Origin: a virus
Taxonomy: Duplodnaviria > Heunggongvirae > Uroviricota > Caudoviricetes
DNA length: 8,514 nucleotides
Strand: one strand, 5' to 3'
IMG/VR virus record: IMGVR_UViG_2681813225_000025
Part shown: positions 1-8,216 of the stretch, piece after piece
Position numbering within the stretch: the stretch's first letter is position 1
How the letters are laid out: every line of letters starts with the position of its first letter
Made by a program: the position numbers and the translations under genes
The notes under the pieces: generated by a model
Told to the model about the DNA's origin: nothing
What the model saw: the letters and a program-made list of their open reading frames with translations, nothing else
Databases searched by the model: none

Positions 1-342
1 ATGATGAAAAAAAGTATTCTGGCGTTTCTGTTACTCACCAGTTCTGCAGCGGCGCTGGCGGCACCGCAGGTGATTACCGTCAGTCGTTTTGAAGTGGGTA
101 AAGACAAATGGGCATTTAACCGCGAAGAGGTGATGCTGACTTGCCGACCGGGTAATGCTTTGTATGTTATTAATCCGAGTACCCTCGTGCAGTATCCTTT
201 AAACGATATCGCACAAAAGGAAGTTGCCAGTGGGAAGACTAAAGCCCAACCCATTTCGGTGATTCAGATTGATGATCCTAACAATCCCGGCGAAAAAATG
301 AGTCTGGCACCGTTTATAGAACGAGCTGAAAAACTCTGTTAA
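1..342 (+). CDS. yebY: Small secreted protein (DUF2511/YebY-like), host chromosomal flank
   Basis: Complete 113-aa ORF with a typical N-terminal signal peptide ([20 protein letters not shown]|AP), TAA stop at 340..342, followed by a strong intrinsic terminator. Symbol assigned from memory of E. coli YebY (same length and signal peptide); not verified by search. Confidence 0.7.
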
Positions 343-371
343 TTACCTAAAATAGCCTTTTGATTTCCAAT

Positions 372-413
372 AAAAAAACCGCCTCAGTTCTTTCACCAGA
401 ACGGGCGGTTTTT
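372..413 (+). terminator. Rho-independent terminator downstream of the yebY-like gene (bidirectional shape: A-run, GC stem, T-run)
   Basis: AACCGCC (377..383) pairs with GGCGGTT (404..410), with inner GTTCT/AGAAC pairing (387..391 / 398..402), followed by a T-run. Lies about 30 nt after the stop codon. Confidence 0.75.
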
Positions 414-615
414 AACATTTAAGCTGATGACCACCGCGCTTTTTATTGACCATTTTGCACGCAAACTGGAAAACCTGGCGTCGTCATCTATTCTTAAAGG
501 GCAAGGCAACTAAGCCTGCATTAATGCCAACTTTTAGCGCACGGCTCTCTCCCAAGAGCCATTTCCCTGGACCGAATACAGGAATCGTACTCGGTCTTTT
601 TTTAATTGTATTTAA

Positions 616-628
616 AATCAATCAGTTG
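616..628 (+). promoter_or_regulatory. IHF-consensus site (WATCAANNNNTTR) in the att-proximal arm
   Basis: AATCAATCAGTTG matches the IHF consensus exactly, sits in an AT-rich stretch and is immediately next to tandem direct repeats, analogous to H' beside the P' arm sites in lambda attL. Confidence 0.4.
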
Positions 629-637
629 CAAGCGTCT

Positions 638-657
638 CCCCGAAATTCCCCGAAATT
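638..657 (+). repeat. Tandem direct repeat CCCCGAAATT x2 (plus a degenerate third copy CTCGAATTT at 661..669); candidate integrase arm-type binding sites
   Basis: Perfect 10-bp tandem duplication seen directly, about 80 bp from the int stop codon. Arm-site function is inference by analogy with the 10-bp-phased P' sites of lambda. Confidence 0.4.
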
Positions 658-734
658 TACTCGAATTTCTGTATTCCGGTCTTTTTTGGTTATATCACAA
701 CCAAAATACATTTAACAATCCATTTACGTTAAAA

Positions 735-2058: not shown

Positions 2059-2164
2059 TGCCATACCTCTTACGATATGACCGCCAGTAAATATACAGAA
2101 TACTGGCGGGTGTGGTTGATTTTTAATAATCAGCTATGAAGTTCTAATTTGTATATAATGCAAC

Positions 2165-2353
2165 TCACGAGGACAGAAGTTTCTCGCAATTAAAATTTAT
2201 CAGCTTTACTTTCTGCTCTCTGGACACGCCTGCTTCTTTTTTCCCTGAGAGCATTTTTTCGCATTCTGATTTCGTTAATTTAGATTTTGAATATCTTGTC
2301 CAGTTAGTAGGAGTGCCACCTTCTTTTTCAATAGTGGCAGTTATTTTATACAT
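2165..2353 (-). CDS. Hypothetical small Lys-rich protein (62 aa), in the position of ydaC in Rac
   Basis: ORF MYKITATIEKEGG...CEKLLSS with a strong SD (GGAGG, 5-nt spacer) before the ATG at 2353. The longer track ORF (start 2425) would begin inside ralR without an RBS. Start overlaps the ralR stop (ATGTATAA). Confidence 0.6.
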   Translation of the reverse strand: MYKITATIEKEGGTPTNWTRYSKSKLTKSECEKMLSGKKEAGVSREQKVKLINFNCEKLLSS

Positions 2354-2540
2354 GAACACCTCCATTATTATTTCCAGTAGTTCGTTTATTCCATCTTTCG
2401 AGTGCTTCTTTTTCACTTCCACCATAGCCAGTTCGGGATTCGCATCCGTTGCATTTTGCCCGGTAATATCCTGAAATTGCTTTCACCGTAACAGATGGAC
2501 AACCACAAAACGGACATGGTTTAACATCGTCATATCTCAT
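2346..2540 (-). CDS. ralR: Lar/RalR-family restriction-alleviation protein (Cys4 zinc-binding; type I toxin-like small DNase family)
   Basis: 64-aa product MRYDDVKPCPFCGCPSVTVKAISGYYRAKCNGCESRTGYGGSEKEALERWNKRTTGNNNGGVHV with the CPFCG...CNGC motif of the Lar family; position between recT and int matches Rac. Start uncertain: in-frame ATGs also at 2552 and 2579, none with a clear SD. Confidence 0.75.
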   Translation of the reverse strand: MRYDDVKPCPFCGCPSVTVKAISGYYRAKCNGCESRTGYGGSEKEALERWNKRTTGNNNGGVHV

Positions 2541-2596
2541 AATTTTTGTCATAAAAACTGTCTCGCGTTGGCGGTGCATTACACCGCCAGGCTGAA

Positions 2597-3406
2597 TTAT
2601 TCTTCTGAATTATCGATCACACTGTATTCCCCGGTTAATACAGAGGAGTCTGCCGGATCGATTGTCAGTGGTTCCTTTTCATCCATTGATACTGCACGCT
2701 GGATTTCAATTGAGACAGGCAGGTATTTAAACAGGCGACGAATAGCCGTTTTTTTTGCCATTTCTTCCCAGTGAGTTACCCATGGCCCGTTATTACCAGC
2801 CTTACTCTGGCTGCGCACCAGCTCAATCTGTTTGCGCGTCATAACTTCAAACTGAGTACCTCCGTCTTTCAGTCTTGCGACAGCATAGACGTGGGTAACC
2901 GGGGCATCTTCGTTTTCTCCTGGGCGGTGTATTAACTTTTCATCAAGGCCAAATTCGAAATTAAATTCGTCACCTTCACGGACAACACGGGCTGACAGGC
3001 TGGCGATTTGACCTGAACGGCGAGCCAGATCAATCATGCCGCGATAGCCAATGATTAGCTGAACGTTTTTTTTACCGCTCTTTTCGTTTTTATTACCAAA
3101 AGGCAGTAAATATGCATGACCGAGGGCGCTACCTGGCTCAAGTCCGAGCTGTGAACACTGTACGATGGCACCGATAAAACTCGTCGAGTCACAGTTTCTT
3201 AGTTCCGGTACTTTACGGATTTCTGTTGTAGCAATGCGGATCATGCGTTCCGCTGTCATGTGACGTGGCAGAGCTGCTGCCAGTTGCGCTTTCATTGCCG
3301 GGCTGTTAATCACGCACAGCACATCCTTATCGTTAACTGCTGCTGGTGCACGGTTTCCCTGAGTTTTTTGCAGATCGGCTTTTGCGATAGGTGGTTGCTT
3401 AATCAT
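2597..3406 (-). CDS. recT: RecT single-strand annealing recombinase
   Basis: 269-aa product beginning [21 protein letters not shown], recognised as RecT. AGGAG lies 6 nt upstream of the ATG at 3406, and that ATG overlaps the recE stop (ATGATTAA). The 288-aa track ORF is an in-frame upstream extension lacking an RBS. Confidence 0.95.
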
Positions 3407-6059
3407 TTGCATACTCCTTAGCCCAGCGGGGCAGTGATAACGTCTTAATAGCTGGCCATTCATCGGTATTTAGGCAGTCAGCCAGGGTCCGCAGATTGCG
3501 GTGATATTCCTGCTGGCCTGCCAGTTTTGCTTCTTCGCCCATCATGAAAATCTCAACCGGATAACGTCCGCATTCAACAGTTGTGCTGGCAACCAGAAAA
3601 ACGAAAGTTGGCTGCACGCCAAACTGTGCTTCATAACCGTCACTGTAGAATGCATCCTGAACGTGATAGCGGTAGTCGTAATAAGCCGTTTTGAATCGTT
3701 GAATATCCGCTGTGGTTTTCACGTCCATGATCCAGTGAAATTCAGGAATAATTTTGTCCGGACGGCACCGACACAAAATTCCTGTTTCCGGATCTTCCCA
3801 GTAAATTGATGATTCAGCGTGTCCGGCGCTTTCAACAAGCCATTGCCCCAGCGGCAAAGCCATAACGCTTTGATACATGAGTTCAATTTTCCGGCCTTCT
3901 TCCGCAGTGATAACCGTTTTTCCTGTGCTTGCGCATTCCATCAGAAACGCTTTCTCTTCTTCTTTTCCGGCGTTTGTACGGCGGTTAAATTCAGGTGCTA
4001 CGATAAAGCGGTTACTGAATTCTTCCGGTTCAAGTACCCGGCAGTGGAAAGCGGTTCCTAAATCGAGCGTTTTTGTCTTTGTAGTGTCCACGGGAGCATT
4101 TTTACGCCACAAATACAGTGCCGGAGTATCAGCAATGTCATCGAGCTGAGACTTACTGACACCGGGACCTGCGTGGTAATTCTCATTCGAAATTCCGTAA
4201 TAAATACCTGGCTCTATGTCTTCTACGATTACGGGATCTGCGACTTCGCCAGTTTCATCACTGCAATCGCGATGCGGATCGCTGCCAGCATTCTCATTGT
4301 GCGGATGTTCAGCGCCTTCCATTTCCTCCAGACCTTTTTCCTGATATTCATTCTGATTTTCTTCATTAAAGGTTTTCTGATACGTTGCGTCGCCCATTAC
4401 CGCGCCACAGTCAGGACAGTTGCCGCCGCCAGCCTTACCGCAGGCGGTGCAAACTTTCTCCGTTTCCTGTTGTTGCACTACTGGCTCAGGCTGTTTCGTT
4501 TCTGGCTCGTTTTGTTGCGTATTTGGGTCGTTCTGTTCCGTTTCTGGCTGATTCTGGTATATAGAGTCGCGGGTCTGGATCCCCTTAACCCATTTCGGAT
4601 CATTCGGGTCGCTAATCCCTTCAACAAATTCTCCGCGAGAGGCAGCCAGTAATTTGTCTGCATCGACAGGATTTTTGGGCGGAATGTTTTTCCGGGCTTC
4701 ATGGAGTTCTGCCCGCAGTTTCTGATATTTCGCATCAACAGAATTTACCTGTGACTGAGCATCCAGCGGCTGCGTGTCCTGATGATGTTCAGTTGCATCC
4801 GGTTCCACTGTTTCAGCCGTTGCCTGTTCATCTGCCATTGCGCAAGATGGTTGCAGTTTTTCTTCATCATCCTGTTTTTCTTCTTCTTCTGTTACACGCT
4901 GCGGCATCGGGGCAGAGGAACGACCGCAGGCAATATCCACGATTTCCGGATCAGGGTTGGCATGATCAGTTTCAGTCAGTACTTTGTTCAGATATTCAGT
5001 GACGTGTGCGGGGGTAACCTCGATCCCAATTGGTGCTTCTTTTACGGACGCAACCACGATGGCGCGGGAATAATCCAGCCCGCCAGGCATGGTGATGAAT
5101 TTGTCGCGGAAAACAGAAAAGGGCGGTTTATTTTCAGCGATAATTTCCTCGACACGTTTAGCGTGTGCCGGATGAAGGTTATAAATGTCCACGTCCATTG
5201 AACGAGCCAGTACGCCAGTGGCTACGTCGCGCGCCAGTGACGTCAGATCGTGAACGAAACCTTCGCCGCGATCGGTGAGGTTCCCGCCGCCAGCATTAGC
5301 GCCGGAAGCCGTGCGCGTGATGCGTGAAACACGATTTCCTTTCATCCACTCTTTTGTCAGCAGACCACGATCGGTGTAGTCTGCGTCCAGGTATGCTTCG
5401 AAAAAAGCAGTCATCAGCCCCAGGCTTGAATTGCCTGGATTAGGGAAAACTCTGTCAGTATCACGCACCAGTTTGTGGAGATCGCGAATTTCCAGCGGGT
5501 CGAGCAGGCTGGTTTTGTGGGAAACAGCCAGGGCAGTAACAGCTGGTAGCTCTTCAGCTCGTGCAATGTGTAATGCCTGGAGTTCGTCGCGTGAAACGTG
5601 CGTCACCGGTTTTTCGCTGCCGTGTTGAGCAAGCCAGCGAATGGGCAGCTCCTGACCGGAAATCGGGAGTAGCATATTCTCCTCAATCTCCGTCATGTCT
5701 TCGCCATTAACATTGGTATTGTCAGTGCTGGCTGGTTTGTCCTGCGCAGAGGATGAGGGCGCGATAAATACCATTGTGATGCCATCTTCCCCGCCTTTTT
5801 CGTAACGGTTGCAGAATTCCGTATCAAATACGCCTTCTGGCGGGAGGTCATCAACAACGGGCAAATTGACGCGAACAGGTTTTTTGAAGTCATCTTCATC
5901 GTAGCCAGCATCATCAATCGCAACAGCACCACGGGAGATGGCAATGGATAATTTTTTCGCTTCAGCCCAGTAAAAACCGCCTTTAATACCGAGACGTTTT
6001 CTGACTTTGTCATTTTTTGCTTCGTAATACAGTGGGTAAACTTGTTTATCGGTGCTCAT
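3399..6059 (-). CDS. recE: RecE exonuclease VIII (5'-3' dsDNA exonuclease, nuclease domain at the C-terminus)
   Basis: 886-aa ORF ending ...[14 protein letters not shown], with the C-terminal nuclease region recognised as RecE. Central Cys-rich segment ([16 protein letters not shown]) and a Q/E/P/T-rich low-complexity linker. GAGG-type SD upstream of the ATG at 6059. The N-terminal about 100 aa look divergent from my recollection of K-12 RecE. Confidence 0.9.
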
Positions 6060-6166
6060 TGTTTTTTAACCTCAACTCAGATTAAAATTCGTTTGTTCAG
6101 TGAATAATCTTGCCGGATACACACTGTTCATAGCCTGTGCCATACGCAGGCTATTTCTTTCAGATT

Positions 6167-6436
6167 TCACCTTTTAATTTCATTGCAATAAGAGTTGCCA
6201 GAAATTCGGCTTTTTTTTCTGCGGGCAGATTCTTTCCGATATGCACCAGGCACATTTTTTTTGACGCCTTCGTTAAGTGTTTTAACGTTGCCTGATGGAC
6301 CGTCGATATCAACCACAGTGAAAGGGGTTTCTTTATTTTCTGTTTTAATCACGTAGCCAATACGCTTTCCTTCCAGGCTGACTTCGTGAACAATGTCATC
6401 AGTAGTAACAACAGTGGCTTCATAACTGGTAATCAT
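6167..6436 (-). CDS. racC: RacC-like small prophage protein
   Basis: 89-aa product MITSYEATVVTTDDIVHEVSLEGKRIGYVIKTENKETPFTVVDIDG..., with AAGGAG 6 nt upstream of the ATG at 6436. The track ORF extends 16 codons further upstream without an RBS. Identity from memory of Rac gene order and size. Confidence 0.7.
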   Translation of the reverse strand: MITSYEATVVTTDDIVHEVSLEGKRIGYVIKTENKETPFTVVDIDGPSGNVKTLNEGVKKNVPGAYRKESARRKKSRISGNSYCNEIKR

Positions 6437-6510
6437 GTTTTTCTCCTTAATTAAGGTTGAGCGAATCCCTGCCATTGCTGGCATAAATTCAGTTTCGGAT
6501 AGTCAGTTAA

Positions 6511-6681
6511 TTAAAGTTCGTGTGCCATCTGGTCTTTTTCGGCACAGATTTCACTACAATATTTTTTCATTTCCGTCGTTGGTATAACTCCACGCATGAA
6601 ATGAAGTGGTCTTGTAATGATTTTGCTTTCTTCAATTTCTTTATTGCAAAGGTGATAAGCACATTTTATTTTCTTAGTCAT
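6511..6681 (-). CDS. ydaE: YdaE-like small Cys-rich (putative metal-binding) protein, 56 aa
   Basis: Not in the ORF track (below its size cutoff). Hand-translated: [59 protein letters not shown] stop at 6511..6513. Start ATG overlaps the kilR stop (TAATG); an in-frame ATG two codons upstream (6687) is an alternative start. Confidence 0.65.
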   Translation of the reverse strand: MTKKIKCAYHLCNKEIEESKIITRPLHFMRGVIPTTEMKKYCSEICAEKDQMAHEL

Positions 6682-6902
6682 TACCATGACTCCGCCTTTA
6701 CAGGTAAACCATCACGACCGAGGAAGACTCTAATCATGCAGTCAGAAATGCATGTTTTTGTAGTCAGGCTACGAATATAAAGTTTTCGCTTTTTAATATT
6801 GTTTGCCGAGGCGATATATGTCCGACCTTCATGAAGAACATAATCGCCAGGAGTCACACACTGACGTGGTATTTCATCAGTTCCGAAGTGATGAGCAATC
6901 AT
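6681..6902 (-). CDS. kilR: KilR-like cell-division inhibitor (FtsZ-targeting killing protein of Rac)
   Basis: 73-aa [43 protein letters not shown]... with AAGGAG 6 nt upstream of the ATG at 6902. Size and position match kilR of Rac. Confidence 0.75.
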
Positions 6903-6948: not shown

Positions 6949-7503
6949 CTATTTAATACTCAGCAACTGCTCGACGGTCATATTTTTAATTGCGCTTCGG
7001 TTTACAAGAGTCCAGCCCTGTTTCTCCAGATAAAGGCGGAAAGTGTCCAGGGTACAGACGAGAGCGCCATCAGGAACGGTTTCAGTGAATTCGACGTTGC
7101 CGAATTTGTCGAAGCGAACAACCAGAGTGCGCCCATCGCCCGGAATGATTTTGTTTGTGGGAGTGGTATTATTCTGGCGCAGTTCTTTCTCCATGCGATC
7201 GAACTCAGCGATGTAGGCTTCTTTAAATGCAGCGGCTTTTTTGCCGGTGAAGCCCATCACCAGGAAAACGAAGCCGTTTTTGGTGATTTGGTACATTGGG
7301 AGTTTGCGACCGGTTGAGTCGGTATATTCGCTCGACACAAAATTGTGCTCAGTGAATTTTGCTGAACAGTCCAGATTGCGAATTTTATCCAACACTCGTT
7401 CGTGGCGTTTACCAAAGAACTCAGCGATCGCAATAGACGTAGTGACAGCGCGTCCATTTTCGATGGTTACGTCAGGGTGAGAAAGGGTATGGATAGTAGC
7501 CAT
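6949..7503 (-). CDS. Phage regulatory protein Rha family (N-terminal Rha domain, uncharacterised C-terminal domain)
   Basis: Residues from MATIHTLSHPDVTIENGRAVTTSIAIAEFFGKRHERVLDKIRNL...YTDSTGRKLPMYQITKNGFVFLVMGFTGKKAAAFKEAYIAEF match the conserved Rha-domain pattern (TTS..IAE.FGKRH..VL..IR ... PMY.MT..GF..LVMG.TG.KA..FK.AYI..F). Start set at the ATG at 7503 (GAGG 8 nt upstream) so the Rha domain is N-terminal as usual. The same frame stays open to an ATG at 7800 (283 aa, GGTGA-type SD), so a longer product cannot be excluded. Confidence 0.7.
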   Translation of the reverse strand: MATIHTLSHPDVTIENGRAVTTSIAIAEFFGKRHERVLDKIRNLDCSAKFTEHNFVSSEYTDSTGRKLPMYQITKNGFVFLVMGFTGKKAAAFKEAYIAEFDRMEKELRQNNTTPTNKIIPGDGRTLVVRFDKFGNVEFTETVPDGALVCTLDTFRLYLEKQGWTLVNRSAIKNMTVEQLLSIK

Positions 7504-7667
7504 GATGGCAGCCTCGATAGTCAGTTTAAATAACTCACCACCAAGGCTTTCCACGACCATAAGGGTGGTGAGACGTACAGGGGTGGAAATACCGGTGACT
7601 ACCGAAACCGGCCAGCCTTTCGGCTGCCCTGCACGCCCCACCATAATCTGAATGTGGCTGTGCATTA

Positions 7668-7700
7668 CGCATAAAAAAACCGCATGAGCGCGGTTATGCG
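7668..7700 (-). terminator. Candidate intrinsic terminator on the minus strand (stem AACCGC/GCGGUU, loop GCUCAU, then a U-run)
   Basis: Plus strand reads cgcataaaaaaaccgcatgagcgcggttatgcg; on the minus-strand RNA the hairpin is followed by 5 or more U. Lies between the upstream small genes and the Rha start, inside the alternative 5' extension of the Rha ORF. Confidence 0.4.
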
Positions 7701-7863
7701 CAGTAGTCATCATCGGGTTTCCACGCCCGGCACCCGCTTTATGAGGTGCAGGTGCACTATAATTCCACCCGTTCTGGTTTTCAATAGCTACATCCAACAT
7801 TTTCTCTCACCTTTCATCACTGAAGTGAACTTTGTTGATGCGGTGCCTGGTGCCTCCAGGTGA

Positions 7864-7970: not shown

Positions 7971-8017
7971 TTTAAAAAGGGGCGGCAGGGCAGCCACGGA
8001 GTAGAACTGATGCCGCC
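7971..8017 (-). terminator. Candidate intrinsic terminator or structured RNA element on the minus strand (7-bp GC-rich stem GGCGGCA/UGCCGCC, then CCUUUUU)
   Basis: Plus strand 7981..7987 ggcggca pairs with 8011..8017 tgccgcc; an A5 run on the plus strand at 7974..7978 gives a U5 tail on the minus-strand RNA. The loop is large (23 nt), so the call is tentative. Confidence 0.3.
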
Positions 8018-8216
8018 AAAGACTACACATAGCAATGTCGTTATTTACAACCGGAGGCGCACTCCCACCATTTAAATTTGACAGACAAGACCGACTCTTT
8101 ATGGATACCGGAAATGCGCCTTCGTGTTATGCCCGGTTTTATTTCACCACCTCCGGGCTTTGGTGGCCTCGGCTATACCTCTACAGCGAGAATATTGAAT
8201 TAATCCAGTAAATGGA

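Follow-up and report, generated by a model that had tools for sequence, protein, structure and literature searches.

A lambda-type attachment site as the likely prophage–host junction in the sdsR terminator

We analyzed an 8,514-nucleotide stretch of DNA, hereafter the window, and conclude that the segment 573–734 is very probably the attL (BOP′) of a lambdoid prophage that entered the host chromosome by lambda-type site-specific recombination, in the intrinsic terminator of the small-RNA gene sdsR (ryeB). The initial annotation had placed a prophage–host junction with an attL-like arm at 414–734, immediately after a host gene terminator. The junction is real and carries an attL-type P′ arm, but it lies at 573–604, within the sdsR terminator, and not at 414. 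The features of the window and of the attachment site are collected in Table 1.

Table 1 Features of the window and arrangement of the attachment site, with the offsets of the sites from the crossover centre in this element and in lambda.
Feature	Position	Strand	Basis or description	Offset, this element	Offset, lambda
yebY (DUF2511), host gene	1–342	+	Pfam DUF2511, E 4.8e-45; annotated yebY in K-12 and strain 155		
ryeA (sraC) body, antisense to sdsR	370–607	−	Rfam SraC_RyeA, 176 bits at 463–607		
yebY terminator hairpin	~378–413		Read from the sequence		
sdsR (ryeB), small-RNA gene	500–603	+	Rfam SdsR_RyeB, 113 bits at 504–603; K-12 annotation mapped by alignment		
Exact core CGAATACAGGAATCGT, 16 bp, common to attL and attR	573–588		Strain 155 attR, MG1655 empty site, PP818812 attP		
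Putative H′-type IHF site, AATCAATCAGTTG	616–628	+	Exact fit to WATCAANNNNTTR	+32	+32
P′1, candidate arm-type Int site, CCCCGAAATT	638–647	+		+54	+52
P′2, candidate arm-type Int site, CCCCGAAATT	648–657	+		+64	+63
P′3, candidate arm-type Int site, ACTCGAATTT	659–668	+	7/10 copy	+75	+73
int, lambda-family tyrosine integrase, 358 aa	735–1811	−	Pfam, structure matches, lambda Int alignment		
xis (excisionase), overlaps int start	1777–2064	−	Pfam Exc PF07825, E 6.5e-14; excisionase in strain 155 annotation		
Rac-type early-left module: DUF1187/rcbA-like, ralR + RalA RNA, recT, recE, racC, ydaE, kilR	2115–6902	−			
H2-like				−48	−48
H1-like				−115	−126
P1-like				−151	−144
P2-like				−130 (direct)	−113 (inverted)

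The yebY hairpin is followed by host DNA (414–604) that encodes the convergent small RNAs SdsR/RyeB (+) and RyeA/SraC (−), and phage DNA accounts for 589/605–734 only of the segment 414–734. The arm motifs had been described as directly following the host gene terminator; in fact, some 160–190 bp of host DNA with the sdsR/ryeA locus lie between the yebY terminator and these motifs. In the alignment with E. coli K-12 MG1655, the window is identical up to position 588, then reads GTAC for GTGT and TCTTTTTTT for TCTCTTTTT (window first), and all similarity is lost after ~604, which places the junction inside the sdsR terminator. The gene order in MG1655 is yebY, ryeA/sdsR, pphA and the site is empty there, providing the uninterrupted locus in a related genome that had been called for. 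The prophage is inserted between yebY and pphA. It does adjoin yebY, as initially proposed in opposition to ttcA, but its real target is the 3′ end of sdsR, internal to ryeA. The K-12 ryeA gene is 272 nt long (1571–1842 of the compared MG1655 locus), and its start site is located 53 bp beyond the core, to its right. Window positions 300–604 are matched by all 5426 complete E. coli genomes.

The exact core is embedded in a longer imperfect identity between attL and attR, which spans 573–604 (32 bp, 3 mismatches). To the right of position 588, the bases are of phage type in attL and of host type in attR. The attR was read in the near-identical prophage of strain 155 and not in the window's own chromosome; over the whole window, the best complete E. 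coli genome is 95% identical. The strain 155 prophage is lambdoid, ~47 kb long, extends from int to nleC and ends next to pphA, and over positions 300–1000 it is 99.9% identical to the window. Its attR, next to pphA, reads ...ttgttgaCGAATACAGGAATCGTgttcggtctctttttatctg (in a fuller reading, ...ttgttgtttgttgaCGAATACAGGAATCGTgttcggtctctttttatctg...), so that a repeat of the core at the far prophage end, which had been sought as a check on the junction, is found in this relative. From the proposed recombination, the matching attR at the pphA-proximal end would be expected to read ...TTGTTGA-CGAATACAGGAATCGT-GTTCGGTCTCTTTTTATCTG. The phage genome PP818812, which is 97% identical, carries an intact attP composed of the P arm, CGAAAACAGGAATCGTATTCGGTCTTTTTTTAATTG, the IHF site, the repeats, and int. 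Copies of the core are therefore observed in attL (window), attR (strain 155), attB (MG1655), and attP (PP818812), as a core duplication implies. At the population level, 228 of the 5426 complete E. coli genomes carry attL continued into int and 228 carry a matching attR, the latter count being obtained with a 341-bp probe of which at least 80% of the length had to be covered. The match of this probe to the empty-site genomes begins exactly at the first base of the core.

The junction could also be a fossil, with the prophage of the window defective and its att sites past recombination, as in the cryptic prophages of K-12. The early-left region is indeed Rac-like, and Rac is cryptic in K-12; in the strain 155 relative, recT and tail genes are frameshifted and an IS insertion is present; the attL of S. 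flexneri CP182556 shows point decay in the core, and the attR evidence comes from strain 155 and not from the window's own genome. Against this, int and xis are intact ORFs, the catalytic residues of int are conserved, the core, the H′ site, and the repeats are undamaged in the window, and the databases contain a free phage genome, 97% identical, in which attP is intact. We consider loss of function unlikely, though still the most credible of the alternatives; it bears on present-day activity only and leaves the identity of the sequence features unchanged.

Two variants of the attL were encountered in other genomes. In S. flexneri CP182556, point changes and a 1-bp deletion affect the core and the terminator, while E. 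coli CP178302 keeps the host-type GTGT at 589–590 and has an extra T in the T-run, which suggests different attP alleles or crossover outcomes. The record PP818812.1 is named 'Actinobacillus phage vB_Apl-pPE4' (pPE4 below). Its int/attP region is 97% identical to that of the E. coli prophage and its attP carries an enterobacterial sdsR terminator; the assignment of this record to an Actinobacillus pleuropneumoniae host looks doubtful. In strain 155, the last gene before attR is the type III effector gene nleC (~22414–23400 of the compared locus), and pPE4 has tail-fibre genes in its place.

The IHF site and the repeats are all flanked by the host junction on one side and, on the other, by the 3′ end of int, whose stop codon is at 735–737 on the minus strand. 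Both elements of the arm that had been reported at the outset, the exact IHF consensus and the tandem pair of CCCCGAAATT with a degenerate third copy, could be read directly. The tandem 10-bp duplication was also recovered by a repeat search (family D3), and the arm-repeat consensus is roughly CCYCGAAATT. No further exact copy of CCCCGAAATT was found across the window beyond the tandem pair; with up to two mismatches allowed, it occurs 7 times in the window versus 9 expected. The IHF pattern has two occurrences in the 8514-bp window, counting both strands, versus 0.57 expected, the second exact match being inside recE (3863–3875), and the probability of a chance match inside the ~130-bp arm is ~0.01.

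We compared four att sequences: a composite attP assembled from the strain 155 attR and the window attL, and those of pPE4, Salmonella ZC-S1_prp, and Flyfo siphovirus Tbat2_3, the last two retrieved by tblastn against phage genomes. The integrases of these relatives are 98%, 73%, and 50% identical to that of the window, respectively; as two of the four att sequences are near-identical, they represent effectively three independent lineages. An integrase search of the genome collection returned two loci only, both 94% identical. With A578, in the invariant core ACAGGA, as the zero point (the anchor), a PWM scan gave three repeats per att sequence, at +60, +70, and +81 in each of the four. Three also have the exact IHF consensus at +38; Tbat2_3, the most distant relative, does not. 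The sequence of the repeats drifts by lineage (CCCCGAAATT; CCTCGAAATT; CCCCGAAATA / ACCCGAAAAA / TCCCGAATTT), and their position and copy number are constant. Similarly, the IHF site varies at N or R positions only (TCAG, TCAT, TTAG, TGGG, final G or A), and the spacer beside it varies freely among the aligned sequences. On the other arm, the PWM scan gave motif matches at −145 and −124 from the anchor, the second in direct orientation. These P-arm sites are weak matches with scores of 8–13, to be read against a background of 5 matches with scores of at least 9 in 7754 bp, both strands. The opposite strand has IHF sites with one mismatch at −42 and −109. A high-scoring candidate P-arm site of strain 155, CCCCGAATTT, was rejected: it is 471 bp from the core, outside the limits of a lambda-like attP, and is absent from pPE4. 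It lies ~100 bp downstream of nleC, and we take it to be a chance match or to belong to the nleC moron.

For the comparison with lambda, the crossover centre was set at window position 584, 6 bp to the right of the anchor. The analogy with the H′/P′1–P′3 organization of lambda attL, drawn at first from the motifs of the window, holds in the spacing, which is within 1–2 bp of that of lambda. The order is the same, with the core, a single IHF site, and three tandem 10-bp arm-type sites, and int adjoins the P′ arm in both phages. The two H′ sites have ATCAATnnnTTGCAA in common and the same orientation, both integrases possess an arm-binding domain, and xis overlaps the start of int in each case. 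In contrast, the arm motif is ~CCYCGAAATT here and of the CAGTCACTAT type in lambda, and the core corresponds to the sdsR terminator instead of the gal-bio attB. The attP–attB identity is ~32 bp and imperfect here versus 15 bp in lambda, and 67 bp separate P′3 from the int stop codon, whereas P′3 abuts int in lambda.

The integrase itself is lambda-like. It comprises the Pfam domains Arm-DNA-bind_1 (PF09003, residues 3–58, 29.7 bits for a cut-off of 22), Phage_int_M, and Phage_integrase (E 1.1e-16 for the catalytic domain). Its identity to lambda Int amounts to 39% across 347 aa (E 2e-84), and it matches the full-length lambda Int structures 5j0n and 1z1b with an E-value of 1.6e-72, while its N-terminal domain matches the structure of the lambda Int N-domain, 1kjk (E 3e-4). 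The TGQR, KTG, HEIR, and GH motifs and the Tyr of MYLD align with the catalytic residues R212, K235, H308/R311, H333, and Y342 of lambda. With the 411-aa IntR of the K-12 Rac prophage, BLASTP revealed no significant similarity (E 1.5). The early doubt that this 358-aa protein could be a Rac integrase was thus well founded.

The tandem CCCCGAAATT could be sites for another protein (Xis, a repressor, or Fis), or belong to a terminator or regulatory element of int. In favour of this, tandem direct repeats are also what lambda Xis recognizes, the copies seen here follow the int stop codon and are rich in T on the sense strand of int, and an inverted repeat (574–585/665–676) and a second CGGTCTTTTTT (677–687) overlap or adjoin P′3. 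However, the Xis sites of lambda are in the P arm and not between H′ and int. The number of the repeats, their spacing, and their distance from H′ and the core match those of lambda P′1–P′3 within 1–2 bp, a related motif occurs at the P1-like position of the other arm, and the arm-binding domain of int needs arm-type sites. Nor is there a convincing terminator fold on either strand: the candidate extra terminator at 655–700 (+) folds at −2.6 kcal/mol with z = 0.44 and was discarded. We therefore regard these other roles as very improbable. That the IHF consensus and the repeats arose by chance in AT-rich intergenic DNA has a negligible probability: degenerate IHF patterns are common, another exact match exists in recE and the repeat with up to two mismatches is no more frequent than expected (7 versus 9), but both exact copies of CCCCGAAATT are confined to this arm, the site positions are kept at integrase identities down to 50% while the flanking bases diverge, the IHF site varies at degenerate positions only, and the site geometry equals that of lambda.

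A scan of 330–900 for promoter and terminator consensus sequences gave no match, and missed the yebY and sdsR terminators too, so that it carries little information here; it lends no support to a phage promoter in place of that of ryeA. Just after P′3, a second copy of CGGTCTTTTTT at 677–687 matches 592–602, and the segment 665–676 forms an inverted repeat with the left half of the core (574–585). GTATTCCGGTC is conserved in ZC-S1 and TATTCGGTC in Tbat2_3. The 665–687 element may be a remnant of an att duplication that occurred earlier, or may represent a secondary core-like site.

Returning to the lambda-type attL, the conserved sites lend themselves to a mechanism modelled on lambda. The phage attP carries a copy of the last ~30 bp of sdsR, and strand exchange would have taken place inside the 16-bp exact identity, most likely at ~581–587 (GGAATCG), a position taken from the lambda geometry that lies almost exactly on the 7-nt terminator loop of sdsR (580–586). 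The arms of the terminator stem would then serve as inverted core-type Int sites; these sites and the exact 7-bp overlap are what we infer from this geometry. On integration, phage DNA supplies sdsR with a near-native 3′ end, and the original one is left at attR, by pphA. Phages that target tRNA genes likewise supply a surrogate 3′ end to the targeted RNA gene. By analogy with lambda and from the conservation of the sites, we infer that Int occupies 638–668 and IHF 616–628. Int, encoded next to the arm, would contact the arm-type sites through its N-terminal arm-binding domain, and with the DNA bent by IHF at H′, a single Int protomer could span one arm site and one core site. Intasomes would assemble as in lambda, both the integrative one and, with Xis, the excisive one.

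This mechanism is textbook lambda and the sdsR/ryeB hot spot has been documented before. In Salmonella, phages are already documented to attach at the sdsR locus (Balbontin et al. 2008, J Bacteriol 190:4075, as cited in PMC7380047, PMC3333887, and PMC3603311), and 'RyeB' is already in use as an att-site label for prophages (PMC10111431). According to the review PMC7380047, PhiW104 and islands in Salmonella enterica have their att site in the last ~23 bp of ryeB, internal to ryeA, and lysogeny at this site alters the 5′ part of ryeA, as is also stated in PMC3333887 and PMC3603311. The Salmonella prophage ZC-S1_prp shares its core and the arrangement of its arm sites with the present element. 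Unlike the PhiW104 case, the host here is E. coli and the phage is lambdoid with a Rac-like early-left region. What appears new is an explicit site map for this integrase lineage, with its arm motif, hairpin-loop core, and lambda geometry at 39% protein identity. Current concepts are left unchanged by this attL. Its interest is that a prophage family found in ~4% of complete E. coli genomes can now be assigned an att site in the terminator of the RpoS-dependent sRNA SdsR, with the core, IHF, and arm sites mapped at base resolution and directly testable. The element offers a natural second specificity (the ~CCYCGAAATT arm motif and the hairpin core) on an otherwise lambda-identical scaffold, which would be useful for comparing arm recognition by Int or for orthogonal integration tools.

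In the lysogen, the last ~15 nt of sdsR, from position 589, come from phage DNA and carry 3 substitutions with respect to K-12. Folding indicated that the terminator hairpin is kept in the hybrid SdsR, with one internal mismatch, and the folding energy of the whole RNA is −28.6 versus −32.5 kcal/mol for native K-12 SdsR. Since ryeA starts on the right-hand side of the core in K-12, 53 bp away from it, the ryeA body of the lysogen lacks its native promoter and 5′ end, which are displaced to attR. Judging from the K-12 and Salmonella literature, the insertion probably cuts the ryeA body off from its promoter and the first ~53 nt, and also disconnects pphA from sdsR. In K-12, where the RyeA promoter and start sites have been described, inactivation of the ryeA promoter increases SdsR and sdsR-pphA read-through, and both the ryeA-promoter and the sdsR-pphA connections control SdsR toxicity and pphA expression (PMC6610125). 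For Salmonella, the review PMC7380047 describes lower ryeA and higher ryeB transcription with PhiW104 at the sdsR site. By analogy, PhiW104-like and K-12-like RNA effects would be expected in this lysogen, and RyeA interference and sdsR-pphA read-through would probably be removed.

A further and decidedly speculative possibility is that the prophage controls the SdsR/RyeA pair and sdsR-pphA read-through, ryeA being cut from its promoter and int being convergent on sdsR. Lysogens would lose RyeA interference, and read-through from int on induction would supply an antisense RNA to SdsR that depends on the state of the phage. If true, although we find it doubtful, this would amount to lysogenic conversion via a host stress-regulatory sRNA and not to a neutral choice of att site, in lysogens that make up the 228 genomes counted above.

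Beyond xis, the window changes character. The K-12 Rac prophage aligns with positions 1750–2650 and is ~95% identical from 2115; the aligned part 2115–2650 takes in the DUF1187/rcbA-like gene, ralR/RalA, and the beginning of recT, and beyond 2650 the Rac-type assignment is based on Pfam, the Rfam RalA model, and the annotation of strain 155. The similarity starts abruptly at ~2115, just past xis, and int-xis is unrelated to intR-xisR. The element is thus, as had been suggested, a mosaic of a Rac-type recombination and kil module and a different integration module, with the breakpoint at ~2115. Like K-12 Rac, it has ralR/RalA, recT, recE, racC, ydaE, and kilR in the same order. It differs from Rac in its integrase (358 aa versus 411 aa for IntR, with no significant similarity), its xis, and its att site, sdsR instead of ttcA. 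The recE gene encodes 886 aa here, versus a 2601-bp (866-codon) recE in K-12. At 2169–2347 (+), a full-length RalA antitoxin sRNA (219 bits) runs opposite to the ORFs of DUF1187 and ralR (Lar family), an antisense arrangement also seen in K-12 Rac.

At the far end of the window, a 283-aa ORF (6949–7800, −) carries the Pfam domains Phage_ASH (residues 14–108) and Phage_pRha; no gene is listed at the matching position in the annotation of strain 155. The Rfam families C4 antisense RNA and isrK match at 7561–7648 and 7673–7749, within the 5′ third of this ORF and on the same strand, and its 'Ash' part may be the RNA leader of an antirepressor module of the P1 c4/ant-like or Gifsy isrK type. A homologue of the DicF antisense sRNA is present at 7980–8031 (−, 60.9 bits), just upstream of the C4/isrK/Rha unit.
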